Source of the DNA: Escherichia phage pinkbiff
Length of the DNA stretch: 64,000 nucleotides
Reading direction: 5' to 3' (one strand)
Sequence record: MN850603.1
Part shown: positions 2,796-56,658 of the stretch, piece by piece
Position numbering within the stretch: the first letter of the stretch is position 1
Layout of the letters: every line of letters begins with the position of its first letter
The notes under the pieces: model-generated
Seen by the model: only the letters and a program-made list of their open reading frames with translations
Told to the model about the DNA's origin: nothing
Database searches by the model: none
Translations under genes and position numbers: made by a program

Positions 2796-2871
2796 TGGAG
2801 AATCCGAAGGGACTTGAACCCTTATAAACCTGTTTTGCAGACAGGCACATAGCCATTTCTGTCACGGATTC
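2796..2871 (-). tRNA. tRNA-Cys (GCA)
   Basis: Manual cloverleaf: T-loop TTCAAGT, 7-bp acceptor stem, encoded CCA, anticodon loop CTGCAAA. Confidence 0.75.
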
Positions 2872-2875
2872 AAAT

Positions 2876-2968
2876 TGGAGGAAGATACCAGACTTGAACT
2901 GGTACACCGATTTCTCAGCTACTGGCAGTTTAGCAAACTGCTCCCTTACCTTTTAGGGTTAATCTTCC
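2876..2968 (-). tRNA. tRNA-Ser (GCU), type II
   Basis: 93 nt, long variable arm, T-loop TTCAAGT, CCA encoded, anticodon loop TTGCTAA. Confidence 0.75.
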
Positions 2969-2969
2969 A

Positions 2970-3704
2970 TTATTTCTGCAATGCGTTCTTCATTTCTGGT
3001 GTTGCAATAGAATCGATTACACCAGTTTTACAAGCATCATCAAACCAGTCTGGTAAGATACCTGCTAAGAACCCATTGATATTCGTTTTAAGGTACTCTG
3101 CAATAAGGGCAGCTTCTTCTTCAATCATCTGCACAACTTCATCTGCATAAGCTGTAATCTTTGAAATACCTTCATTAATCTTACTAACAGCTTGGTTAGC
3201 TAAATCAGAAATAGTATCAAGACCTTTATCAATAGCATCCTGTAAGTCACTTAACACATCATTAACACCATCTAGTGTACTGTTAATCGTATCCATAGCT
3301 TTTTGACCATACTCTGTAGCAACACCCATAATACCACTAAACGGTGTACAGCCAACTTGCTCTCCTGCTGCACCCATAACATTGGAATAACCTTTTGCTA
3401 CCTGCATACGTGATGAGAACTCATCAATGGACTTTTGACCGTAATCTGTCAGCGTCTTAGTAGTTGATGTAGTGCTTGTCAGACTCGTTGTAAAGCCATT
3501 AAGCAGAACTGTTGTAAGTCCAGCAGCAACAAGCTTATCCTTTACTGTAGGGTCTGATACAGAGCTAATAGAGTTTACAAGTGATGTAGAGGCAGCTACG
3601 GTTCCACCGAGAACTGCTGCACCAGTAATAAGGGGATTAGAAAACCCTCTACCGGTTTTTAAGAGATTGAAAATCTCCTTACCTTGTTCTGTCATCTCTT
3701 TCAT
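2970..3704 (-). CDS. hypothetical protein (244 aa) embedded in tRNA cluster
   Basis: Long minus ORF; start set to ATG at 3704 because the track start (3767) would overlap the next tRNA. Thr/Ser-rich low-complexity stretches; no motif recognised. Confidence 0.55.
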   Translation of the reverse strand: MKEMTEQGKEIFNLLKTGRGFSNPLITGAAVLGGTVAASTSLVNSISSVSDPTVKDKLVAAGLTTVLLNGFTTSLTSTTSTTKTLTDYGQKSIDEFSSRMQVAKGYSNVMGAAGEQVGCTPFSGIMGVATEYGQKAMDTINSTLDGVNDVLSDLQDAIDKGLDTISDLANQAVSKINEGISKITAYADEVVQMIEEEAALIAEYLKTNINGFLAGILPDWFDDACKTGVIDSIATPEMKNALQK

Positions 3705-3720
3705 TAAGCACCTTTGAAAT

Positions 3721-3796
3721 TGGTAGTCCAGTGGGATTTGAACCCTATTCTCATGTTTTTCAGACACGCGCTTTAACCATATAAGCTACTTGGACT
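3721..3796 (-). tRNA. tRNA-Phe (GAA)
   Basis: T-loop TTCAAAT, CCA encoded, anticodon stem-loop CGTGT-CTGAAAA-ACATG; acceptor/T-stem pairing imperfect, ends approximate. Confidence 0.6.
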
Positions 3797-3802
3797 ATAA
3801 AT

Positions 3803-3878
3803 TGGGGTGACCTACGGGATTTGAACCCGTATAGACCATGTTCACAGCATGGGTCATTACCATTTATGATAAGGCCAC
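3803..3878 (-). tRNA. tRNA-His (GUG)
   Basis: T-loop TTCAAAT, 7-bp acceptor with one G-U, CCA encoded, anticodon loop CTGTGAA. Confidence 0.75.
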
Positions 3879-3909
3879 ATTTAAGGCCTCTCGTAAGAAC
3901 CCTTAGAAG

Positions 3910-3985
3910 TGGCAGCGGCATAAGGATTTGAACCTTAATAGGACAGCTTCAGAGACTGCTGCATTGCCAGTTATGCTATACCGCT
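3910..3985 (-). tRNA. tRNA-Gln (CUG)
   Basis: D-stem GCAT/ATGC, T-loop TTCAAAT, CCA encoded, anticodon loop CTCTGAA. Confidence 0.65.
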
Positions 3986-3990
3986 AAATT

Positions 3991-4069
3991 TGGTACTCCA
4001 TATCGGATTCGAACCGATACATAACACAGATTTTAAGTCTGGCCTCTCTGCCAATTGGAGTAATGGAGC
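3991..4069 (-). tRNA. tRNA with anticodon UAA (Leu-type anticodon; short variable arm)
   Basis: T-arm ATCGG-TTCGAAT-CCGAT, 7-bp acceptor, A73, CCA; anticodon loop CTTAAAA. 79 nt with no long variable arm, so isotype needs confirmation. Confidence 0.55.
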
Positions 4070-4071
4070 AT

Positions 4072-4147
4072 TGGCGGGGGATGTTGGAATTGAACCAACT
4101 TCTTCGATTTCAAAGACCGAGGTTTTAACCTTGTAAACTAATCCCCT
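4072..4147 (-). tRNA. tRNA-Gln (UUG)
   Basis: T-arm GTTGG-TTCAATT-CCAAC, D-arm GTTT/AAAC, anticodon loop CTTTGAA; 1:72 unpaired. Confidence 0.7.
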
Positions 4148-4155
4148 TTAAATCT

Positions 4156-4713
4156 TTACTTTCTCAGTGGATGAATAAAGAATGCCAACATAACTCTTTC
4201 CCTTGAGAATGCTCTTTCTTCTGGGACAACACTTTTTAGTTTCCATCCAACATAGATTCTCCAGTAAAACTGTTTACCAAAGACTTTAATTGACGGAATA
4301 AAAGCGAATAATCCCCAAGCATTGTTGTTCCACATTAGGAGATAACCTGTCTGATTATCTTCGGGGTCAGAACTTACGTTGATATTACCTTTCCACTTAG
4401 TAACATCTTTTACATCTCTTCCTAATACATGGTAAGAGAAGTTATAAGCTTTGTTTCTCCAGAGCCATCCGACTCTCTGCATGTAGACACCCAGCTTACC
4501 AATCTTTCTAATCTTAGCCCATCTTTTAACGTGACCCTCATCACCATCAATTGGGTTGTCATATGTCTCCATCCATCTGAACCCGAAAGGTAAGTGTCCT
4601 TTCTTCTCACTGTAGAATGGAACTACAAAAGGTGCTAAGATAACTGCTAAGATTGCTGCAAATGGCTCTAACAAAGCTAAGAAAATCCATGAAGCATACT
4701 TCAAATATCTCAT
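4156..4713 (-). CDS. hypothetical membrane protein (185 aa)
   Basis: ATG at 4713 with AAGAGG SD; hydrophobic N-terminal segment. Confidence 0.6.
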   Translation of the reverse strand: MRYLKYASWIFLALLEPFAAILAVILAPFVVPFYSEKKGHLPFGFRWMETYDNPIDGDEGHVKRWAKIRKIGKLGVYMQRVGWLWRNKAYNFSYHVLGRDVKDVTKWKGNINVSSDPEDNQTGYLLMWNNNAWGLFAFIPSIKVFGKQFYWRIYVGWKLKSVVPEERAFSRERVMLAFFIHPLRK

Positions 4714-4732
4714 CTAAATAGCCTCTTTAAAT

Positions 4733-4808
4733 TGGCGCAGGATAAGGGATTCGAACCCCTATTAACAGCTTCGTAGACTGTTGCTCTATCCATTTGAACT
4801 AATCCTGC
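4733..4808 (-). tRNA. tRNA-Arg (ACG)
   Basis: T-loop TTCGAAT, 7-bp acceptor, CCA encoded, anticodon stem-loop ACAGT-CTACGAA-GCTGT. Confidence 0.75.
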
Positions 4809-4922
4809 TTACCTACGAGAACACCATACAGTTTTTCACAAACTTTGTTTTTACGTCTGTTTAGGTATGACGCTCTAAACTTTTTTGCGATGGAGTTATT
4901 ACTCATGGTGCTCTCCTCAAAT

Positions 4923-5000
4923 TGGTGTTCCAAGACGGATTCGAACCGTCACTAATACAAGGTTTGAGCTTGCATCCTCTGCCAATTGGGATACTGGAAC
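4923..5000 (-). tRNA. tRNA with anticodon CAA (Leu-type anticodon; short variable arm)
   Basis: T-arm GACGG-TTCGAAT-CCGTC, acceptor 7 bp, A73, CCA; anticodon loop CTCAAAC; 78 nt. Confidence 0.55.
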
Positions 5001-5001
5001 A

Positions 5002-5076
5002 TGGTACTCACTAAAGGACTTGAACCTTTTTCTTCATCTTGTAAGGGTGATGTTTTACCATATAAACTAAGCGAGT
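5002..5076 (-). tRNA. tRNA-Val (UAC)
   Basis: T-loop TTCAAGT, acceptor 7 bp incl. G-U, CCA encoded, anticodon loop CTTACAA. Confidence 0.7.
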
Positions 5077-5171
5077 GTGAAAGAGGTCTGAAGTTGTGCC
5101 GCTAACTCAACTCCGTGGAATTTGTTACGGTCTTCAGTTGACACCAGCGGTCTTTCACTTGACCTCTGAAT
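5077..5171 (-). other. unassigned structured spacer (tRNA-like/ncRNA candidate)
   Basis: 95-nt gap between tRNA-Val and tRNA-Thr flanked by complementary ends (agaggtc ... gacctct); no canonical T-loop found. Confidence 0.25.
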
Positions 5172-5247
5172 TGGTGCTCCCACAAGGATTCGAACCCTGA
5201 TAAGTTGCTTACAAGGCAACCGTAATAGCCAATTATACGATAGGAGC
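5172..5247 (-). tRNA. tRNA-Thr (UGU)
   Basis: T-loop TTCGAAT, CCA encoded, perfect anticodon stem GTTGC/GCAAC with loop CTTGTAA. Confidence 0.78.
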
Positions 5248-5254
5248 ATTAATT

Positions 5255-5329
5255 TGGAGCATCCAGAGGGAATCGAACCCTCAACCTCAGTTTGGAAGAC
5301 TGTAATTTTCCCGTTTAAACTATGGATGC
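5255..5329 (-). tRNA. tRNA-Gly (UCC)
   Basis: T-arm GAGGG-TTCGATT-CCCTC, acceptor GCATCCA/TGGATGC, CCA encoded, anticodon loop CTTCCAA. Confidence 0.78.
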
Positions 5330-5335
5330 ACTAAT

Positions 5336-5411
5336 TGGTGGAGAAGCAGGGAATTGAACCCTGTACTTAAGTTTGCAAAACTTATGTTTTAACCATGTAA
5401 ACTACATCCCC
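5336..5411 (-). tRNA. tRNA-Ala (UGC)
   Basis: Acceptor stem with G3:U70 (Ala identity pair), A73, CCA; anticodon stem TAAGT/ACTTA with loop TTTGCAA. Confidence 0.8.
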
Positions 5412-5417
5412 AATGTC

Positions 5418-5493
5418 TGGTACAGGTGGAGGGAATTGAACCCGTCGTCTTACTGATTAAGAGTCAGCCGCATAACCATTTTGCTACACCTGC
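5418..5493 (-). tRNA. tRNA-Lys (CUU)
   Basis: T-loop TTCAATT, CCA encoded, anticodon loop CTCTTAA; T-stem has two mismatches. Confidence 0.65.
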
Positions 5494-5500
5494 ATTAATT

Positions 5501-5578
5501 TGGTGGGAGACAAGGGATTCGAACCCTCAAACATCTCGTTCTAAGCGAGATAGGTTTACCAATTACCATCAATCTCCC
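5501..5578 (-). tRNA. tRNA with anticodon UAG (Leu-type anticodon; short variable arm)
   Basis: T-arm GAGGG-TTCGAAT-CCCTT, acceptor 7 bp, A73, CCA; anticodon stem TCTCG/CGAGA with loop CTTAGAA; non-canonical D region. Confidence 0.55.
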
Positions 5579-5833
5579 ATTAAATCTTTTTAGAGAACTT
5601 CTAAGAACCTAAGCAACAAGGTTCCACAACAAGCTGTAATAACCTTAGAAGCCCTCTAAAAAGACCTAAAAAGGTCTTTGCATAGTCTTGTTTAATCCGG
5701 TGACTAGAACCTTTGGAGAGCTTGATATTATCTCTTCTCCGTGACACCTACTAGGTGTTTTATCAGTGTGTACGACAATACACGAGGGATACCAAAGCAA
5801 CATCCGAATGAAGCTTGGCTTTAAATCTTATTA

Positions 5834-5923
5834 GGCGGTAAGTAAAGGAGTCGAACCCTCACCGTATCTCTACAGTGGCAACTGTTTTCAAGACAGTTTG
5901 GCTACCATTAGCCGCTACCTACC
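5834..5923 (-). tRNA. tRNA-Ser (UGA), type II
   Basis: About 88 nt, long variable arm, T-loop TTCGACT, perfect anticodon stem ACTGT/ACAGT with loop CTTGAAA; 3' end reads GCC-T, so CCA not fully encoded. Confidence 0.7.
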
Positions 5924-5936
5924 CCTAATAAGACTT

Positions 5937-6019
5937 TGGCATGGGACGGAGGAGTTGAACCCCTTTGAAACGGTTTTGGAGGCCGTTGCTCATGCCTTAG
6001 AGTCTTAACATCGTCCCAT
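5937..6019 (-). tRNA. tRNA-Trp (CCA) candidate, atypical D region
   Basis: Perfect 7-bp acceptor ATGGGAC/GTCCCAT, T-loop TTCAACT, CCA encoded, anticodon loop CTCCAAA; 83 nt with an over-long D region. Confidence 0.5.
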
Positions 6020-6160
6020 ACTATAATTCGAAGCTTACCGTATTATCTCAACACTGTAAAGCTCCTTCTCAGGTTATTTACATGTTCTGGAAACATGAGA
6101 TACAGACCACCTCCCTACAGGAAGACCCGCTTAGGTCGTCTAAGTAATCTGCTAACTAAT

Positions 6161-6237
6161 TGGCACACCCTACAGGATTCGAACCTGTAACTCAATGATT
6201 AGAAGTCATTTGCTCTGTCCAGTTGAACTAAGGGTGC
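6161..6237 (-). tRNA. tRNA-Arg (UCU)
   Basis: D-arm GTTC/GAGC, anticodon stem AATGA/TCATT with loop CTTCTAA, T-loop TTCGAAT, CCA encoded. Confidence 0.78.
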
Positions 6238-6573
6238 ATTAATCTTTAAAGACTCTCTTAGAAAGCCCTTAAAGATGCCCACCTTATTAATCATACCGTG
6301 GGCTAGTACGCCAAATTCTTTGATGAGGGATTGGAAGACCTCACTGGTGTTTAGCCTATCAAGCTACTGCCAGAAAAACATTGTCGTTTGCATTTATTTT
6401 AAATTTGCAAAATAGACGCTACGCAACGAAAACTATTCAGAATATGTACAACAAATTTCCCCACATTGTGTTACGTCTAACACTCATGTATTGGTGTTTG
6501 AATTATACATATTATGAAGTATTTTAGTTACTATAAAGTAGTCACATCTCAATGTCAACAACTTTATTGAAAT

Positions 6574-6649
6574 TGGTACTGGTAGGTGGAATCGAACCAC
6601 CGATGTTCCCTTATCAGGGGAGTGTTATAACCTTCTTAACTATACCAGC
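6574..6649 (-). tRNA. tRNA-Ile (GAU)
   Basis: T-arm GGTGG-TTCGATT-CCACC, CCA encoded, anticodon loop CTGATAA. Confidence 0.72.
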
Positions 6650-6650
6650 T

Positions 6651-6727
6651 TGGAGGTTCAGATGGGAATCGAACCCACATTCATAGGGTTTATGAGACCC
6701 TTGCATTACCTTATCTGCGACTGAACC
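6651..6727 (-). tRNA. tRNA-Met (CAU), elongator-like
   Basis: Perfect acceptor GGTTCAG/CTGAACC, anticodon stem AGGGT/ACCCT with loop CTCATAA, T-loop TTCGATT, CCA encoded. Confidence 0.75.
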
Positions 6728-6731
6728 ATAT

Positions 6732-6807
6732 TGGTAGAAGTGGAGGGATTCGAACCCATCGCCTGTCAGATTAAAAGTCTGCCGCATCACCATTCTGCTA
6801 CACTTCC
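6732..6807 (-). tRNA. tRNA-Lys (UUU)
   Basis: Anticodon loop CTTTTAA, T-loop TTCGAAT, CCA encoded; T-stem imperfect. Confidence 0.68.
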
Positions 6808-6810
6808 ATT

Positions 6811-6956
6811 AAATTATCTTTGTAGATAAGCTACCCAGACTTGCTTAAGGTCTGTAGCGATGTGCCTTTTTGGGTTTAAATCTAGAATTTACCCTTTCAC
6901 CCTTTGTGGTCGCATACTCACAGGTAAGCTTAATAACTTATCTACAAAGATAATTA
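6811..6956. repeat. 18-bp perfect inverted repeat flanking about 108 nt inside the tRNA cluster
   Basis: attatctttgtagataag (6813-6830) and its reverse complement cttatctacaaagataat (6938-6955); no tRNA fold found between them. Confidence 0.6.
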
Positions 6957-7004
6957 CCAGACCGTTGTTTATCATCTTAAGTGCTACCATTACACCAACT
7001 CGAC

Positions 7005-7035
7005 CTCTGCCGAGTGAAGGAATCGAACCTTCTCC
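7005..7035 (-). other. isolated tRNA T-arm-like element (possible tRNA remnant)
   Basis: GAAGG-TTCGATT-CCTTC T-arm followed by a 7-nt acceptor-like strand, but no matching 5' half in the expected position. Confidence 0.3.
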
Positions 7036-7239
7036 TTTTCTTTACCGAGAAATAGATTGTTTAAGTTTTGCTGTAAACGGTCTTCTGTAAATTTGTTGAG
7101 CCAGACCAAGTTTTAAATTTTTTTCAAAATTGAATTGGCTTGAAAATATCATACGTACTTGCTGTATTTGGTCTTCTGCCCCTTTAAAGAATACTCGTAA
7201 GAACTCTTTAAGGGAGGGGCTAAATAGCCCTCTCAAAAT

Positions 7240-7317
7240 TGGCGGTTACGAAGGGATTTGAACCCTCATCATCTCCCGTGACAGGGGAGTATTTTAACCA
7301 AATTAAACTACATAACC
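7240..7317 (-). tRNA. tRNA-Asp (GUC)
   Basis: Perfect anticodon stem CTCCC/GGGAG with loop CTGTCAC, T-loop TTCAAAT, CCA encoded. Confidence 0.75.
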
Positions 7318-7322
7318 TTTAT

Positions 7323-7410
7323 TGGTGTGCCGTGTAGGAGTCGAACCTACCGAGTCTCAATGACAAGGGATTTACAGTCCCCACCGCTACCATCTACGGG
7401 ATAACGACAC
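7323..7410 (-). tRNA. tRNA-Tyr (GUA), type II
   Basis: 88 nt, long variable arm, anticodon stem GGGGA/TCCCT with loop CTGTAAA, T-loop TTCGACT, CCA encoded. Confidence 0.72.
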
Positions 7411-7478
7411 ATTTAATTTCTATTCAGGCTAAGGACTTGCACCTTACAAATCGGTGAGCAATCGCTTCTCTCCTAAAT
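7411..7478 (-). other. unassigned 68-nt spacer with variant T-arm-like hairpin
   Basis: AAGG-TGCAAGT-CCTT hairpin but no complete cloverleaf. Confidence 0.2.
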
Positions 7479-7479
7479 T

Positions 7480-7556
7480 TGGCGGTTAGTCAGGGATTCG
7501 AACCCTGTGCCATTCGCTTAACAGGCGACCGCACATACCTTATGTGCTTCCTAACC
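7480..7556 (-). tRNA. tRNA-Asn (GUU)
   Basis: D-arm GCAC/GTGC, T-arm CAGGG-TTCGAAT-CCCTG, CCA encoded, anticodon loop CTGTTAA. Confidence 0.72.
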
Positions 7557-7639
7557 ATGTTTAGTATTACCAGACCGTATCTTTCAATTTTTCCGCTAAA
7601 AATTTAATAAATATTGCTGTAAACGGTCTTCTGTAAATT

Positions 7640-7716
7640 TGGAGGCGGGTGCAGGAGTCGAACCTGCCGATACCATGCTAATGAGACATGTGAGACGCCC
7701 TTTCTCTATACCCGCA
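7640..7716 (-). tRNA. tRNA-Met (CAU), second copy (initiator or Ile2-type possible)
   Basis: T-loop TTCGACT, CCA encoded, anticodon loop CTCATTA, 1:72 unpaired (T:C). Confidence 0.6.
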
Positions 7717-7806
7717 ATTCTTAATGACCAGACCAAATATCTTCTTTGTCCGATTTCGTGTCAGATGAGTAGATTAAGTTTGCTGTAATTGGTCTTCTGT
7801 CAAAAC

Positions 7807-7884
7807 TGGCGTTCCAGAAGGGATTTGAACCCTCAAATATCCACTTTGAAAGAGTGGTGACTTTACCATTTTGTCTACTGGAAC
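7807..7884 (-). tRNA. tRNA-Glu (UUC)
   Basis: Perfect acceptor GTTCCAG/CTGGAAC, anticodon stem CCACT/AGTGG with loop CTTTCAA, T-loop TTCAAAT, CCA encoded. Confidence 0.75.
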
Positions 7885-7891
7885 ATTAATT

Positions 7892-7968
7892 TGGTCTCTG
7901 TTGGAGGACTTGAACCTCCGGCCTTACCGCCCCAAACGGAACGCTCTACCAAGCTGAGCTAAACAGAG
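7892..7968 (-). tRNA. tRNA-Pro (UGG)
   Basis: Canonical D-arm GCTC-AGCTTGGTA-GAGC, T-arm GGAGG-TTCAAGT-CCTCC, CCA encoded, anticodon loop TTTGGGG. Confidence 0.75.
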
Positions 7969-9549: not shown

Positions 9550-9628
9550 ATTTACTCTCCTCTCTCGTTGTTGTTTGATGTGACAGACTTTAGAGCAACT
9601 TTGTAGAGTCTGTCAACACCTTTTAAAA

Positions 9629-10000
9629 TTATTTTTTGAGAGTCGCTACAGCAGAAAACGTTGGTTTGTTATCTGTCTGGGTTTGACCACCATTATCGGG
9701 GGTCTTCTTAGTGTCTGCTGCAATCGCTTTCATCTCACCTGCTGAGTGGGTCATGATAGTTTTACCAGCTTCCATCATCGACTTCAGGTTTACATCGTCA
9801 GTCGTCAAACCGAACTCTGCAAGCTTAGCAGCATCCCTTGTAACAATCGCCTCAAACAACTTTGCAGCAAACTCAGCAGAATTATCAATGGTCAGTTGAG
9901 CTTTTACGAGTGAGCTTTTGTTACGAGAGCCTTTTGGTCTTCCAGATGGGTTTCCAGACTGGCCTTTTTTAAACTGGCCTTTGTTTGTTCTGTTTTTCAT
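9629..10000 (-). CDS. hypothetical basic protein (123 aa)
   Basis: ATG at 10000 with AAGAGG SD; N-terminal Gly/Lys/Arg-rich segment. Confidence 0.6.
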   Translation of the reverse strand: MKNRTNKGQFKKGQSGNPSGRPKGSRNKSSLVKAQLTIDNSAEFAAKLFEAIVTRDAAKLAEFGLTTDDVNLKSMMEAGKTIMTHSAGEMKAIAADTKKTPDNGGQTQTDNKPTFSAVATLKK

Positions 10001-10175
10001 TGGTATGCCTCTTATAAGACCTCTTAAAAGGCTTTTAAGATAAAAGATAGATATCCAGAAAGATATCTGTTTAAATAGCCTTTTTAGAGGAACCTTTTAA
10101 GTTATCTTCTAAGTATTTATAAGCCTACACCTTGTCAAGTACTTTGTCAACAACTTTTTTAACTTGCAATAGTTC

Positions 10176-10204
10176 TTGACTTGTTGTATGGATTACTGTA
10201 CCAT
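10176..10204 (+). promoter_or_regulatory. candidate promoter for the plus-strand operon
   Basis: TTGACT (10176-10181), 17-nt spacer, TACCAT (10199-10204), about 45 nt upstream of the first plus-strand ORF. Confidence 0.3.
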
Positions 10205-10249
10205 CTTACTTAAAGCTGTAGGTCTGCCTTGTTCTACAAAGGAGACTTA

Positions 10250-10411
10250 ATGAGGAAATCAAATAAACCGAAGAAAGGTAAGAATACCAATCACTGTAAG
10301 GAATCAAAAAGGGTAGAATTAATCTACTATTCATCCTCTGAAATTGGTCTGTACCTGTTCTTTCAAAATTACAGAAGACAAGAGGATTATCTATGTGTAG
10401 TTCCCAATTAG
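10250..10411 (+). CDS. hypothetical small basic protein (53 aa)
   Basis: ATG at 10250 preceded by AAGGAGA; track ORF starts at an upstream TTG. Confidence 0.4.
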   Translation: MRKSNKPKKGKNTNHCKESKRVELIYYSSSEIGLYLFFQNYRRQEDYLCVVPN

Positions 10412-10626
10412 AAATCGCAGATATTATAGACTTATATCAAACTGCAAAGAGTCATGGCTATATAACCTCAATTGGAAAGAATAGTCACTATGATGCTTTG
10501 ACTGGAATGTATTTCAGGGCAATGGCTCAATCTAGTGAACAACACTTAGTGGTTTCTTCCAGTGAGTTTACTTCGTTTCTCTATTGCAGCAAAATTATAA
10601 ATCGCAGGAGAACTGAAAAATGTTAA
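10393..10626 (+). CDS. hypothetical protein (77 aa)
   Basis: ATG with AAGAGGA SD; overlaps neighbours by a few nt (operon-like packing). Confidence 0.5.
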   Translation: MCSSQLEIADIIDLYQTAKSHGYITSIGKNSHYDALTGMYFRAMAQSSEQHLVVSSSEFTSFLYCSKIINRRRTEKC

Positions 10627-17749: not shown

Positions 17750-19330
17750 AAATTTACGAAATTTATATTTTTATAAAATTTTATCGGTTGTCCCAACCTC
17801 TGGGTCACCATCATATGTGAATAAAATATCTATCCTTCTTAACAGCCTTCTTAATCTTACTCTCTATGTAGTTATATAGTACTATATAGTATCTTAGTAA
17901 CTATCTAGTGGTCTTAATAGCCCTCTGTATAACCCTTCTAACAAGCCCTCTAACAAGCCTTCTAAACACTCTTCTAACAAGCCTTCTTAACAACCTATAC
18001 AATCACCTTAATCATCCATCTACACCCTCTTAGAAGCTCCTATACACCTCTTAATCTCTAGGTTACCTATGTTACCCTCTATAGGTGTTCACTAGGTATT
18101 ACTAAGCCTCTATATAGACTGTTTTAACAAACTTAACAGGAATATCTTTACAGACCTTATCTCACAAGGTCTAACACGGTACTAACAAGGTATCTTATAA
18201 GCCTGTTTCTACCTGTATTTTTAAAATACTGTCTAGGTAATTATTCAGAATTTTAAAATTTTTATAAAATAGAGCTATCAAGTCATTTTTTAGGGTCTTT
18301 GAAGGAACTGAAAAATATCTGTCTAGGATGTATATCTGCTTGGTAGCCCTTAACAGCTCCCTTACAAGTACTTTGCAGAATTTTAAAATATCATTAACAG
18401 TTTCTTAACAGTTCTCACATCTTCTTAACAACTCTTCAAAGGTCTTAACAGATTCTTAACAGAACTAACAAGGGCTTAACAGTTTTCTAGGGATTGGTAA
18501 CAATACCAATTAACAAGTACTGAATAGGCTTTACAGAATCTTAACAGATGACTAACAAGAGCTAACAAGTTAATTTTAAAGAGTTATTTTGTTAAGATAA
18601 TTAACAAGTTCCTAACAAGTGTTTAATCTTTTTAACAAGCTATTAACATGGTCACTACTCTTTTCTTATCGTTCCCTTTCCTTTCTTAGTGACTTCTTAA
18701 ACATACCTCTTAAAAGCTCTTAAAAGCTCTTTATAGGCTCTTTTAAGTCCCTCCCTAGTATTTACCCCTCAACTGTATGGATAGCTCTTTATAGGGCTTT
18801 ACAGGAGCTTTTAAGGCTATGCCAAAGGTTCTTACAAGGTTTTTACGTGGTCTTAACAGAGATTTAACAAGGTGCTAACAAGAATAACTATGTAGGGTTT
18901 GTTAAGAAAATGTTAAAAAAATGTTAAGGGGGCTAGCATTTACGTAACTTTTAAGCTACTTCAAAGTAACTTTATAACCCCTATAACATGCTTTTTAATA
19001 GCTATCAAGGGGTTTGTTTAATCATTCACAAGATACTAGCCAGCCTATAAGCTTTCACCCTTATAAGATTCTTTTAAGGCTCTGGGAAGCTTTATAAAGG
19101 GCTTTTAAGGGTGAGGTAATGCAATCCCTTAAGTTAGGTTAATAAGGCCGTTATAGGGCTTTATAGAGCGTTTAAATGGTTGCCCTTCCCTTTCGGGTTA
19201 TGGGCTTATATTTAAGTTGATTTGATAAGAGGTTATAGAGTAGACTATAGAGTTATTGCTTTTTAAGGTCTAGTAAGATTCTGGAAAGGAAAGGGAAAGG
19301 GTTTGTATAAGGATTCGATAGACGTAAAAA
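17750..19330. repeat. 1.6 kb non-coding iteron-rich region (over 30 copies of CTTAACAG / CTAACAAG-type motifs plus CTTTTAAG / CTTTATAG motifs; AT-rich blocks)
   Basis: No ORF of any size with SD; dense short direct repeats at roughly 8-12 bp spacing (e.g. 17935-17995, 18395-18660, 18850-18880); bounded by convergent terminators. Confidence 0.8.
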
Positions 19331-23721: not shown

Positions 23722-24234
23722 TTAGTTCTTAAAGATATTCATCACTGAATCTTTTAGTGATTCCAAACGTTCTAATACTTCAGATTCTGCGTCTGAATTG
23801 TTCACCTCTTCTTTTAGTCTATCCTCTAAATCAACGCCGTCGCTATAGCACCAATCGAAAGCGTAACCAATAAAAAAGCTGTCTAAAACCGTTTTACCGT
23901 TTTCATCTACAACTTTTGCGGCTAGAAGGTATTCTGAAGCCTCTAAATCCCTTTCTAGTTCTCTTTGTAAGCTGATATAAGCCTCTTTTGAAGGGTTTTC
24001 CCGGCCTTGTTTTGCATAGTCGCTTGAAAGCTGTTTAAGGCTGTAATGTAAAGGGATTGCATATTTAAAAGCACCATAACGATAGTTGGGGTTTTTAATA
24101 GTCACACCGCCTTTATGGTCATCTGTAAACTTCCAATAATCAAGATTATAGCTTGATTCGTAGCAATTTACCGCTTCGTAGATGATGGAAAATTTTTCTT
24201 TTACAACTTCAAAGGTAGCGTCTACAGTTTTCAT
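23722..24234 (-). CDS. hypothetical protein (170 aa), cassette gene
   Basis: ATG 24234 preceded by the variant B cassette. Confidence 0.6.
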   Translation of the reverse strand: MKTVDATFEVVKEKFSIIYEAVNCYESSYNLDYWKFTDDHKGGVTIKNPNYRYGAFKYAIPLHYSLKQLSSDYAKQGRENPSKEAYISLQRELERDLEASEYLLAAKVVDENGKTVLDSFFIGYAFDWCYSDGVDLEDRLKEEVNNSDAESEVLERLESLKDSVMNIFKN

Positions 24235-24319
24235 TTTTGAATCTCCAGTTTAGGATTAAGTGGTAAAGCTCTTTATCTGGGGCTTAAGATATCAACTTTT
24301 AAGCCCCCTGTAAAGTACT
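24235..24319 (-). repeat. conserved intergenic cassette, variant B
   Basis: Nearly identical to 21759-21845. Confidence 0.8.
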
Positions 24320-24613
24320 TTATTTGTTAATTTTCAGCTTTGCATAACCTCTCATTGTACGAATGGGGGATGTTAATGCTACGCGTCTAATGTATGCCTT
24401 TTTCGTGTATACATTTGTCTTCCCGATAGTGTTTACACATGTAAAAAGGTTTATCGGTGAATTTTTTAACTTCAAATGTTTATCAACCTTTACGCCCCAT
24501 CTTACAGCGGATTGTTTTCCGTTGTCAACCACTTTCCCGCCTAACTTTTTCGCCATGATGCGAGCGTCATCACGAGTTTTTGCAGGAATTACAACGTTTT
24601 TGATAATAGCCAT
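24320..24613 (-). CDS. hypothetical protein (97 aa), cassette gene
   Basis: ATG 24613 preceded by the variant A cassette. Confidence 0.6.
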   Translation of the reverse strand: MAIIKNVVIPAKTRDDARIMAKKLGGKVVDNGKQSAVRWGVKVDKHLKLKNSPINLFTCVNTIGKTNVYTKKAYIRRVALTSPIRTMRGYAKLKINK

Positions 24614-24685
24614 TTTTGAATCTCCTAGTTTAAGGGTTTTTATTTAGTGGGGAAGTCATTTCCTCCCCGTTGATGCAAATACTAG
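24614..24685 (-). repeat. conserved intergenic cassette, variant A
   Basis: GGGGAAGTCATTTCCTCCCC hairpin plus conserved TIR. Confidence 0.8.
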
Positions 24686-24870
24686 ATAACCCCGTTCGAA
24701 TAGTCAAGAAAAATTTTAAAAATATTTTTGGCAAAATTGTAATGAAACGGGTGCGCGCGACTACCACAAAACAGAGCTACAATCAAGAATTATTTTTCAA
24801 TCCGCTACAAATTTTTCTGTTGACTTTTCTTTTCGGATGTGGTAGCCTTGTGAGAAATGGCGACATCCCT

Positions 24871-25070
24871 ACCTGCACCCACCTACCTGCACAATTCTAA
24901 AATGATTTTTCTTGCCCGACCTGATTTTTCTCTGCACGTTTTGAAAATGAAAAAGCTCTTTGGAGATTACCTGCACAGTTTGAAAATGAATTTTCTCTTT
25001 GGAGTTCAAAATTCTCTCTACAGATTTCTCTATAGAAATATACCTGCACAATTCTGAAATGAAAAAGCCC
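24871..25070. repeat. array of 4-5 direct repeats, consensus CCTGCACARTTYTRAAATGAAWWAG
   Basis: Copies at about 24886, 24932, 24969 and 25042 (partial at 24871) in a 480-bp ORF-free interval. Confidence 0.7.
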
Positions 25071-25135
25071 TCCTTACCTGAAAAATTTACCAGATAAGAA
25101 AGGCTTAGTCTATTGTGAGTATTTTACAGAGTTTC

Positions 25136-25921
25136 TTAGTTCTTTGCGTCTAAGAAGGTAAGCTCTGGTGAAGAGAAGATTAACTCGATATCCTCATCAG
25201 TTCTCGCATAGATATAAGTATCTGCATCACTGCCAAATGTTACTGCAATCCTGTGATTGCTCTTCGACAGGTGGGTAACTAGAGCGTTACTTAGAGACAT
25301 CTTTTCAACCGGAGGGTTACTTTGATGTATCTTACCTTTTCTTCGTCTGAAAAGGGTAACTGCATTATCCGTGAACACTGCTACACCTGCAAAGTATTCT
25401 GGTTCACAGTAGTTCTTCCAACCTGAGAGTAACTTGTGGTACATCTCTCCTTCATAGACATACAGATAAACATCTACACTCTTCATGACCTGATTGATGA
25501 TAACTGTGACAGCTTGAGGGTCGAGTCCACCGATACCTGCACCAATCATAGGTAGACCGACTTTCTTCAACTGGTTAACTTCACAGTATCTGTTAAGCTG
25601 TTTCAAAGATGACTCTAAAGCACTGTATCGTGCATCTTTACCAGTCTTAAGCTGAGTGTAAAGGTTAGCTATACGGCCTTGTTTTAAACGTGCTACAGAG
25701 GAATTACCCAGTAAATTTTCACAGGGTTTGTGTCCTATACCACCTGCATATAGATAAACTTCTGTATCGGTCTCATATGCTTTTGGGTAAAGTTTAGAAA
25801 TCTTGTCAGCGATACCTGCACCCATTAAATTCATACAGTTGCAACCGTGACCGATGATGTCAAACTTACCTTTATCAAATGCGGAAAAGATATCACCGTT
25901 GATAATTTTTACAATACCCAT
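25136..25921 (-). CDS. macro-domain protein (ADP-ribose binding/processing), 261 aa
   Basis: N-terminus G-D-I-F ... D-I-I-G-H-G-C-N-C-M-N-L-M-G-A-G-I-A matches the macro-domain glycine-rich ADP-ribose pocket; extra C-terminal domain of about 100 aa. Confidence 0.7.
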   Translation of the reverse strand: MGIVKIINGDIFSAFDKGKFDIIGHGCNCMNLMGAGIADKISKLYPKAYETDTEVYLYAGGIGHKPCENLLGNSSVARLKQGRIANLYTQLKTGKDARYSALESSLKQLNRYCEVNQLKKVGLPMIGAGIGGLDPQAVTVIINQVMKSVDVYLYVYEGEMYHKLLSGWKNYCEPEYFAGVAVFTDNAVTLFRRRKGKIHQSNPPVEKMSLSNALVTHLSKSNHRIAVTFGSDADTYIYARTDEDIELIFSSPELTFLDAKN

Positions 25922-25922
25922 A

Positions 25923-26123
25923 CTAATAATGCTCCCAACGTTGCATGTCTTCGGATGGTTTTACACGGTTACCCTCATGGTCTACATAACCTGCACCACA
26001 ACCTTCACAGATAACTGGCATAGCTGAACCAGCTTCAAACTCTTCTTTGGTGAAGAGACCTTTCAAGTCCCCTGTATCAACACCAAAATGTTCTATTGCA
26101 CACTTCTTGCAGAAATCAGCCAT
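25923..26123 (-). CDS. small zinc-ribbon-like protein (66 aa)
   Basis: ATG 26123 with AAGAGG SD; CxxC ... CxxC pattern. Confidence 0.5.
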   Translation of the reverse strand: MADFCKKCAIEHFGVDTGDLKGLFTKEEFEAGSAMPVICEGCGAGYVDHEGNRVKPSEDMQRWEHY

Positions 26124-26343
26124 GAATAATTGCCTCTTGAATGATGATACCTTTACCACAACGGCTTTTAAAGTCTTCCAATGGTTGGGAGATGAAGCCA
26201 CGCAAGCAATCACTAAATACTAAGTTTTTCCTGTAGGCTATCACATCGTTTGCTGTAAACGGGATGACTTCATTTCTTCCAATGAATACTGCTGACCGGA
26301 TGAGTTTCCGTGTCTTTTTATCTCTGGCTAGAATTACTCTCAT
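26116..26343 (-). CDS. hypothetical protein (75 aa)
   Basis: ATG 26343; overlaps the downstream start by 8 nt. Confidence 0.5.
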   Translation of the reverse strand: MRVILARDKKTRKLIRSAVFIGRNEVIPFTANDVIAYRKNLVFSDCLRGFISQPLEDFKSRCGKGIIIQEAIIHG

Positions 26344-55977: not shown

Positions 55978-55978
55978 A

Positions 55979-56401
55979 TTATTTCTCTCTCAGTTGGTTA
56001 AGTTTCTTTCTAGAACATTTTAAGTTTTCGGATGAAGAAAAGTCAAGTGTCTTTTCAGAACGTGGATAATAGTGCCTATCCCAAGAAGTTTCAACATCGT
56101 TAATCAGTGACGCTAGATTACACAGGTCTGTACCACTTTGCAACCTCTTTTTAAGAGAATCTAGTAAAGCAACTGTGTCTTTAGCTTTACGTCTCGCTGT
56201 AGCAACATCTTTCATATGCTCAAATACAGAGCATTTTAAGTCATCTTCATAGTTTTCAGACAACTCTATTTCATGTTGTATATCAACCATTCTCCTGTGA
56301 TGGTGAGCATATTCCCGTTGAGCAGCAATGTCAAGTTCTTCCAACTTCTGCAAAGCTCTAACAAAGTCAGCTATGTCTGGGTGAACAAACATTTTCTGCA
56401 T
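55979..56401 (-). CDS. hypothetical protein (140 aa)
   Basis: ATG 56401. Confidence 0.55.
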   Translation of the reverse strand: MQKMFVHPDIADFVRALQKLEELDIAAQREYAHHHRRMVDIQHEIELSENYEDDLKCSVFEHMKDVATARRKAKDTVALLDSLKKRLQSGTDLCNLASLINDVETSWDRHYYPRSEKTLDFSSSENLKCSRKKLNQLREK

Positions 56402-56658
56402 GTAAGCCTCTTTTAAGTAACTATTAAGTTTTAATCTTTTATCTTAACGTATTCTATACGTTATACTTTAAAGCTTTTTAAAAGCTATTAAATAATCTTT
56501 TAAGAGTTTTAAAGTATCTGTATAGTTAAACTGTTAAGTAACCTTTTAAGTAAAAACCCACTTCGCAAAGATTAACACCTTGTCAAGTACATTGTCAACT
56601 TGCTTTTTATAATTTTTTGCAGTAATGTATGAGGTTAATGATTTTAGAGGGAGTAAAA

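Follow-up and report, generated by a model that had tools for sequence, protein, structure and literature searches.

Four same-direction copies of an asymmetric, bipartite motif of about 20 bases lie in a gene-free interval of Escherichia phage pinkbiff, between the gene for a macro-domain protein and a run of small genes, and we consider it probable that they are binding sites for a protein on DNA. The same interval, with four copies in unchanged order, was found behind the macro-domain gene in all relatives that we fetched, and the near-invariance of the repeats across a phage subfamily makes them very probably docking sites for one DNA-binding protein. The role of such binding can be proposed only tentatively: our preferred reading, to which we give somewhat less than even confidence, is control of transcription at a terminator-promoter junction via a single sequence-specific protein on duplex DNA, and its main rival is a replication origin. 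The window analyzed here, a stretch of 64,000 nucleotides (MN850603.1), belongs to a Felixounavirus (Ounavirinae), a Felix O1-like myophage with ~95% identity to Salmonella phage Mushroom; the 1.3 kb around the repeats are 95.5% identical to Mushroom and matched 288 phage records.

The genes on both sides of the repeats are on the minus strand, and the interval without a credible gene extends from 24614 to 25135 (522 bp). The original prediction had recognized the gap between the macro-domain gene and the first small gene correctly and had placed its lower end too high, at 24690. Its parts follow one another along the direction of transcription from the macro-domain gene's terminator through the four sites, a variable segment and an inverted promoter-like pair to an A/T tract with a strong sigma-70 promoter:

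25136-25921, minus strand: macro-domain gene, 261 aa; Pfam Macro, E=8e-8; PHROG 335 'phosphatase'.
25065-25106, minus strand: intrinsic terminator behind the macro-domain gene; its 17-pair stem includes G-U pairs that exist on the minus strand only, and TTTTTCATTT follows.
25041-25067, minus strand: repeat copy 1, TTTTT-CATTTCAGAATTGTGCA-GGTA, 31.1 bits; overlaps a sigma-70-like TTTTCA-17-TATATT (25065-25037).
24968-24994, minus strand: repeat copy 2, AAATT-CATTTTCAAACTGTGCA-GGTA, 30.2 bits; preceded by a conserved ACTCCAAAGAG.
24929-24955, minus strand: repeat copy 3, TTTTT-CATTTTCAAAACGTGCA-GAGA, 27.6 bits; preceded by TCTCCAAAGAG.
24884-24910, minus strand: repeat copy 4, AAAAT-CATTTTAGAATTGTGCA-GGTA, 31.6 bits; preceded by GGTCGGGCAAG.
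24868-24878, minus strand: partial fifth copy, GTGCAGGTAGG only, lacking the TCATTT half.
24826-24880, no strand assigned: variable segment, in the window with a hairpin GGATGT...ACATCC (24835-24868); conservation falls to 0.69.
24781-24825, no strand assigned: inverted A/T tract and TTGAYT pair, AGTCAAsAG...TTCTTGAyT, 45 bp, 72% invariant.
24820-24848, plus strand: plus-facing module, TTGACT (24820-24825), 17 nt, TAGCCT (24843-24848).
24786-24758, minus strand: minus-facing module, TTGATT (24786-24781), 17 nt, TAGTCG (24763-24758).
24679-24729, minus strand: main promoter of the small-gene array, TTGACT (24707-24702), 17 nt, TAGTAT (24684-24679); sigma-70 match 9/12.
24614-24668, minus strand: 5' leader of the first small gene, with hairpin GGGGAGGAAATGACTTCCCC (24668-24649), shared block CTTAAACTAGGAGATTCAAAA and ATG at 24613.
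24320-24613, minus strand: 97-aa gene with no assigned function at the other end of the interval, replaced by other genes in relatives.

These parts and their conservation suggest that the interval is a compact control region, with the four repeats as one of its modules. A run of small genes follows downstream on the minus strand, each behind a repeated leader of ~85 bp in which a promoter-like box is combined with a hairpin and a strong ribosome site, and the repeats are indeed upstream of this array along transcription, as originally claimed. The region borders a zone of gene shuffling. Other large non-coding gaps of similar size in the window lie at the direct terminal repeat (18340-18925), at ~55978-56629 and at ~9550-10620.

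Read on the minus strand, the repeat unit has the form W5-TCATTT-N6-GTGCA-GGTA. As the flanking genes are on the minus strand, the biologically relevant unit is the reverse complement of the consensus given with the original prediction (CCTGCACARTTYTRAAATGA). Searching with that consensus yielded three sites at up to 3 mismatches where 0.03 were expected, a number reached in none of 100 shuffles; the fourth copy by this search, at 24932, is more diverged from it. By repeat finding, which returned families of three to five copies, CTGCAC starts on the plus strand at 24887, 24932, 24971 and 25044 (spacing 45, 39 and 73); on the minus strand, CATTT starts at 25061, 24988, 24949 and 24904 in the four full copies, which are 68-86% alike. 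We then built a weight matrix from 39 distinct copies in relatives. It gave the four sites scores of 27.6-31.6 bits; elsewhere on the two strands of the 64 kb, the top score was 10.6 bits, a value that falls inside the range of maxima from 20 shuffles (8.5-17.4). The predicted direct repeats were borne out, and the lack of any other high-scoring site in 64 kb indicates that the element is specific to this locus rather than a general promoter class of the phage. Within the unit, exactly 6 bases separate the invariant blocks TCATTT and GTGCA, which places the block centers about one helical turn from each other. From site to site the spacing is irregular and lacks helical phasing (73/39/45 bp in the window), and a cooperative architecture is thus not evident.

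We fetched relatives from four genera, namely Barry, Mushroom and ASO1A (Felixounavirus), Mijalis (Mooglevirus), SUSP1 and SUSP2 (Suspvirus), and M7, SB18 and Coenus (Kolesnikvirus). In Kolesnikvirus phages, which have Erwinia or Salmonella hosts, the unit reads W5-TCATTTyCrAwTyGTGCA-TAG. An alignment of 12 genomes concentrates its invariant columns in the TCATTT and GTGCA of each copy as well as in the -35 and -10 of the downstream promoter. The gap from CATTT to GTGCA is exactly 7 bases in each tabulated copy (28 genomes, four genera), and the bases in between vary with copy and lineage. Orthologous copies retain their own signatures, suggesting that each site is selected separately and that the conservation does not stem from recent duplication or homogenization. 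Across 28 Felix/Moogle/Susp genomes, invariant columns make up 64% of the 18-nt repeat cores (mean conservation 0.946) and 72% of the inverted TTGAYT module; in the macro-domain gene (28 genomes) they make up 56.5%, 68% and 19.5% at codon positions 1, 2 and 3, respectively. Judged by these columns, the 0.5-kb control region appears to be under purifying selection equal in strength to that on protein-coding positions.

Outside the Ounavirinae, a pattern scan of IMG/VR recovered the array in one related lineage only (3300045988_063805 and _048813, 85-88 kb), whose proteins are 30-42% identical to those of the window and syntenic, and in which four to five looser copies (TCATTTTAAAAACGTGCATAGG) stand behind a short macro-domain gene. 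The remaining IMG/VR matches to the motif were rejected as coding tandem repeats or two-copy chance matches. Conservation in related phages, proposed as a check at the outset, hence extends to four copies in four genera and to a looser form in the distant lineage. Spacing differs elsewhere, with 75/41/45 in Mooglevirus, 37/37/39 in the Erwinia phages and 36/148/38 in the distant lineage; apart from the 148, copies among relatives are 36-77 bp apart. None of the relatives examined has a gene between repeat copies or repeats flanking a gene. The contigs Andreotti, L012, L013, L016 and L033 stop inside the interval, at the variable segment, and these ends look like assembly breaks rather than physical ends.

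The terminator of the macro-domain gene is the sole terminator-like site in 24000-26000 and equals terminator t13 of Felix O1 (Table 2, PMC3185647). Its stem is kept in 10 relatives through one-sided U-G/C-G changes, valid on the minus strand, its 3' arm (CAGGTAAGGAGGGC) resembles the tail of the repeat unit, and copy 1 starts in its T-run. The variable segment occurs in two forms, one with the hairpin and the partial fifth repeat (the window, Mushroom and Barry) and one with a C-rich tract, G-rich and quadruplex-capable on the plus strand (ASO1A, the Susp and Moogle phages and the Erwinia phages). The plus- and minus-facing TTGAYT modules were read from the sequence, both being under the threshold of the promoter scan, and the inverted pair is a candidate for divergent promoters or for a dyad binding site. 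The main promoter shares an 'AAAwTTTTTCTyTTGACT' module with this pair, and neither its -35 nor its -10 varies across 12 genomes from four genera. A 20-bp tract of pure A/T (24710-24729), ~155 bp past copy 4, sits exactly at the position of its upstream element. The leader type of the first small gene recurs ahead of other genes of the array.

Sites that are asymmetric, made of two blocks, of one orientation, unique in the genome and individually selected over a time span of family depth carry the signature of a duplex-DNA site for one protein, and the rigid spacing of CATTT and GTGCA points to recognition of duplex DNA rather than of single-stranded RNA. We infer protein binding from this anatomy, and the identity of the protein and the transcriptional output are proposed on the same conditional footing. 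In our preferred reading, the array would bind one sequence-specific protein, encoded by the phage or else conserved among enterobacteria. Once bound, this protein may occlude or activate the weak promoter-like sequences overlapped by copies 1 and 2. It may also, or instead, stop read-through that crosses the boundary from the long operon upstream, or an antisense plus-strand transcript from the 24820 module. After GTGCA-GG at copies 1 and 2, a hexamer keeps T1, A2 and T6 while its inner bases vary (TATATT, TAGAGT, TAGATT, TATTAT and TATAGT at copy 1; TAATCT, TAGACT and GATAAT at copy 2). This pattern places the conserved box at the position of a -35 and spacer, where a repressor or a MotA-like activator would sit. 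Several observations count against regulation of transcription. The spacing of the sites is irregular and changes between relatives, the would-be spacer is only 15 nt in the Erwinia phages, and the only strong promoter (24707-24679, sigma-70) is 180-380 bp downstream of the four-site array. Given this distance, and given that almost all of the small genes downstream come with promoter-like leaders of their own, regulating the one junction seems of limited use.

We compared the invariant positions informally with the motifs of other sigma factors and of host regulators, and to our knowledge none of sigma-54, -32, -E and -28, nor of CRP, IHF, Fis, Lrp, MarA, OmpR, NtrC, PurR, ArgR and Fur, fits them. 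The repeats had originally been put forward as a candidate operator or promoter array or as sites for a host-takeover regulator. Binding sites are the part of this proposal that best fits the bipartite core and the deep conservation, a plain promoter array is not supported, and nothing ties the element specifically to host takeover.

The serious alternative to transcriptional control is a replication origin, which we regard as unlikely overall and yet a real contender. Under it, the repeats would be iteron-like sites for an initiator or helicase loader, with flanking promoters giving activation or an RNA primer, and the duplex would open at the 20-bp A/T tract or, in relatives, at the G-rich, R-loop-prone tract. 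Its most attractive version, in which transcription by the host polymerase activates four initiator sites, as a host-RNA-polymerase counterpart of the T7 primary origin, seems to us just as unlikely. The T7 primary origin consists of a pair of promoters and an A/T-rich stretch, and the interval likewise offers promoters and a pure A/T tract in a strongly conserved non-coding region of ~0.5 kb, together with a unique cluster of same-direction, asymmetric ~20-bp sites. Most relatives also have the strand-asymmetric C-rich/G-rich tract, just downstream of the plus-strand TTGACT module, although it is missing from the window's allele. The element lies ~5.7-6.3 kb from the physical genome end. The replisome is T7-like, with a primase-helicase and a PolA-type polymerase (PMC3185647), which counts for an origin as well.

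The resemblance to DnaA boxes depends on the lineage. At its 3' end the unit reads CTATGCACA / CTATCCACG in the Erwinia phages and the distant lineage, which departs from the DnaA box TTWTNCACA at one or two positions (one in the Erwinia-phage copies), but the repeats of the window (ACCTGCACA) are 3 mismatches off. No perfect DnaA box occurs in 24614-25135, where the best match has 1 mismatch and is outside the repeats. A search of 72,556 plasmids gave no similarity to plasmid iterons. The spacing of the sites, irregular and variable from relative to relative, is unlike that of classic iterons, and no initiator-like gene adjoins, the neighbors being the macro-domain gene and interchangeable small genes. 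Since the array failed both the test of regular spacing and that of an adjacent initiator, we did not file it as an origin. If it were one, this classical diagnostic and therapeutic phage group would gain its first origin and its first defined cis-acting control element, and the factor that recognizes it would be shared between Felixounavirus and a lineage with only 30-42% protein identity.

A row of tandem sigma-70 promoters, each unit being a weak promoter for the host RNA polymerase directed toward the small-gene array as in T7 A1-A3, is considerably less plausible. Copy 1 fits this idea best, with its TTTTCA-17-TATATT matching at 9/12 and T1, A2 and T6 retained in the hexamer 2 nt past its GTGCA, and the position right after a terminator would suit re-initiation. 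However, only copy 1 reaches 9/12, copies 2-4 are below the sigma-70 threshold, and the motif occurs nowhere else in the 64 kb, which speaks against the 'promoter array' of the original prediction. The -35-like hexamers are without TTG (copies 2 and 4 match 2/6), and those at the -10 of copies 3 and 4 are not conserved as TAnnnT. The invariant bases would fall in the spacer and not in the hexamers, and in the Erwinia phages and the distant lineage this spacer has 15 nt, bringing the TA of the would-be -10 2 nt closer. Moreover, the region downstream already has a canonical promoter preceded by an A/T tract, and transcripts from the repeats would carry an untranslated leader of 250-450 nt.

An element that acts in the transcript, where the motifs might for example form an RNA-binding-protein sponge or mark sites of processing or Rho loading, is improbable in our view. 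The RNA would come from the plus strand, started at TTGACT-17-TAGCCT (24820-24848), or from the minus strand by read-through of the terminator. A conserved, promoter-like plus-strand module with an A/T upstream tract does aim into the repeats, the repeat zone is rich in C and poor in G on the plus strand (C 35 and G 26 of 184), and RNA would easily tolerate the variable spacing of the copies. On the other hand, the -10 of this module is TAAGAG in most relatives, and the rigid spacing of the two blocks is unusual for single-stranded recognition. Searching Rfam with E up to 5 gave no family for the interval, and no tRNA or tmRNA was found there. RNAalifold on ten genomes gave no conserved structure and 0 pairs with two-sided change on either strand, with the terminator stem as the only one supported. 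The comparison of the repeats with 5,426 E. coli genomes, for similarity and for complementarity, returned one 32-nt chance match (E=2), leaving the repeats without a complementary host sequence. At 26171-26251, a weak and unrelated Rfam match was seen below threshold.

That the repeats have no function, as a relic of tandem duplication by the terminator or as scars of cassette recombination, or that they belong to a small plus-strand gene (24742-24900 or 24857-25057), is very improbable. The likeness of the terminator's 3' arm to the unit end would suit an origin by duplication, and the gene-shuffling zone adjoins. Against this, the cores are 64% invariant versus 19.5% at third codon positions of the same genomes, the array persists at 30-42% protein identity, and in no relative do the repeats flank a gene. 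The plus-strand ORFs 24670-24900 and 24857-25057 are present and lack a Shine-Dalgarno sequence; they had been said merely to echo the repeats, and they are not coding-like. An AGGAGA Shine-Dalgarno precedes the real genes at the locus. The ORF 24742-24900 (MKRVRATTTKQ...LPAQF) is open in most Felix-like genomes, which favors a small gene, but we rejected coding by the plus-strand ORFs: three genomes lack the start codon, the C-terminus differs between genera in frame and length (52, 74, 85, 97, 105 and 130 aa across genomes), and variable sites fall mainly at codon positions 1 and 2. Copy 1 is outside this ORF and is conserved equally. A CRISPR array was likewise rejected, with repeats only 68-86% alike, spacing of 39-73 bp, and 'spacers' that are conserved between phages.

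Least probable of all is a cis site linked to the genome terminus, whether an entry checkpoint like the injection stop of T5 or a signal for packaging or concatemer processing. About 7% of the genome length separates the array from the mapped terminal repeat, and in the distant lineage a TTAACA-rich tract, at most a candidate terminus, follows the array within ~30 bp and matches the terminal-repeat boundary of the window at 90% identity over 31 nt. However, large inverted repeats and pairs of DnaA boxes are both absent, and we know of no report of two-step injection for Felix O1-like phages. For UAB_Phi87, a 608-bp direct terminal repeat was mapped by Bal31 digestion and run-off sequencing (PMC4837284, Fig. 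S1); it aligns to 18340-18925 of the window (76% over 629 columns), and on this alignment a genome terminus or pac site in the interval was rejected. The terminal repeat thus lies ~5.7 kb past the interval, with the small genes transcribed toward it, and the array is not within it.

In the literature that we searched, including the Felix O1 genome paper, no description of the array repeats was found, nor a transcription-start map, defined operator or replication origin for Felix O1-like phages. The Felix O1 genome paper states that the temporal regulation of transcription is not understood, and it lists the terminator and exact repeats of at least 24 bp only, with no promoter in the gap (PMC3185647). 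A knockout screen in Bas63 found the neighboring genes dispensable, and intergenic insertions were not reported for this phage. Salmonella typing, biocontrol and therapy all make use of Felix O1-like phages, and their engineering is under way (e.g., Bas63). The array is among the most strongly constrained non-coding sequences of the genome and marks the entrance to the shuffled small early genes; knowing its binder would open a way into early gene control or replication, and genome engineers should not use the 'empty' 0.5 kb as a neutral insertion site.

Several known systems resemble the array in part. Iteron clusters (the O-binding sites of lambda ori, P1 oriR and P4 ori/crr) share with it a single cluster of four to five same-direction, asymmetric ~20-bp sites in a non-coding setting with an A/T-rich tract and promoters, whereas the array differs in its irregular spacing of 39-73 bp, in having no adjoining initiator gene, no iteron similarity and no DnaA box. 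The T5 injection stop region (iss) is also a conserved non-coding repeat cluster, a few per cent from the genome end and more conserved than nearby genes (bioRxiv 10.1101/866236). It is located inside a 10-kb terminal repeat and has inverted repeats and paired DnaA boxes; the array is 5.7 kb outside a 0.6-kb repeat and has neither. T7 A1, A2 and A3 are promoter-like units in a row heading small early genes, but their hexamers are canonical, while those of the array are weak, with the conserved bases between them. The T4-type PeSL (promoter-early stem-loop) cassettes, which flank shuffled small genes, border a hyperplastic small-gene block as the array does, and the leaders of the small genes here (TTTACA-GGGGCTT...AAGCCCC) resemble PeSL. 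The repeats themselves differ, with no conserved hairpin inside the units, no stem-loop of their own, and no flanked gene in the relatives examined.

The phi29 p4 sites (A2c/A2b/A3) and the MotA boxes of T4 exemplify multi-site operator or activator arrays from early/late switch regions of phages, which like the array have several sites clustered at a transcription boundary. MotA boxes replace the -35, and at copies 1 and 2 of the array a conserved box similarly occupies the -35 and spacer position before TAnnnT. In contrast, MotA-type boxes are spread over dozens of promoters and the array motif is confined to one locus, and the array sites are direct repeats, not dyads. No regulator is known for Felix O1-like phages (PMC3185647). 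Set beside these systems, the array would represent a previously undescribed example of clustered, direct-repeat, putative protein-binding sites.

Three short features of the 522-bp interval are listed here with their positions.

24742-24900, plus strand: ORF of 52 aa, MKRVRATTTKQSYNQELFFNPLQIFLLTF...LPAQF
24710-24729: pure A/T tract of 20 bp, just upstream of the -35 element of the main promoter
25034-25014, minus strand: short direct repeat CTATAGAGA-AAT-CTGTAGAGA, between copies 1 and 2 of the repeat unit

Copy 4 and the plus-strand TTGACT module are separated by a segment (24826-24880) that occurs as two unrelated alleles of almost the same length, as compared between the window and the relatives' loci L004, L005, L006 and L029-L034. 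The window, Mushroom and Barry carry a hairpin allele; a C-rich allele, whose plus-strand runs of three to five G match a quadruplex motif, is found in many other Felixounavirus, Suspvirus, Mooglevirus and Erwinia phages. Both alleles preserve the length and frame of the 52-aa ORF, which stays open in most Felix-like genomes. The substitution pattern, lost starts and frame changes disfavour this ORF as a gene, though it might still encode a small hydrophobic peptide. The A/T tract contains a perfect 12-bp palindrome (AAAAATATTTTT) and is unchanged across Felix/Moogle/Susp genomes; possible roles are those of an upstream element of the promoter and of a dyad operator.

Several assemblies end or turn chimeric inside the interval, either at the variable segment or shortly ahead of it, namely the IMG/VR 3300045988 contigs L012, L013, L016 and L033 and the GenBank entry of Andreotti (MN850610, L008). 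L012 and L013 stop at one and the same position, which in L013 is followed by a Nextera adapter; L016 runs on into unrelated G+C-rich sequence with no match to the phage, and Andreotti has a fold-back artefact at its start. These ends are probably places where assembly broke down because the tract varies between strains or is homopurine; less probably, they mark a physical discontinuity.

[quoted passage not shown] The terminal-repeat homolog lies where converging minus-strand and plus-strand gene blocks meet. Plus-strand 8-mers of the CTTAACAG, CTAACAAG and CTTTTAAG type are dense there, with 7 of the 14 plus-strand CTTAACAG sites in the window falling within these 0.9 kb.

The distant lineage of 85-88 kb contigs (L085/L124, IMGVR_UViG_3300045988_063805, and L125, _048813) encodes proteins syntenic with those of the window and 30-42% identical to them; a close DNA relative was sought in the GenBank phage collection and none was found. 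Its short macro gene (148 aa) is followed by four to five looser copies of the repeat motif and, about 30 bp past these, by a TTAACA-rich tract; over 31 nt, this tract shares 90% identity with the boundary of the terminal repeat in the window (~18925-18895).

Felix O1-like phages typically carry a tRNA gene cluster, and the window has one as well. The small-gene array contains two families of repeated leaders, each of about 85 bp.

2796-7968, minus strand: tRNA gene cluster, 26 genes
24314-24271, 23712-23670, 22641-22598 and 21840-21797, minus strand: type A leaders, TTTACA-GGGGCTT...AAGCCCC-AGATAAAG
near 24680-24614, 22995-22922 and 22160-22056, minus strand: type B leaders, CATCAACGGGGAGG...CCCCACTAAAT...TAAACTAGGAGATTCAAAAATG

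The type A leader forms a hairpin overlapped by a promoter-like box. These leader repeats were entered as 57-bp and 39-bp repeats in the Felix O1 paper (PMC3185647). Close relatives differ in the genes behind the interval (24614-25135): Mushroom has one additional gene, and in Barry five genes separate the interval from the homolog of the 97-aa gene. The array leaders, together with these differences in gene content, recall the way in which PeSL elements mediate the shuffling of cassettes in T4-type phages.
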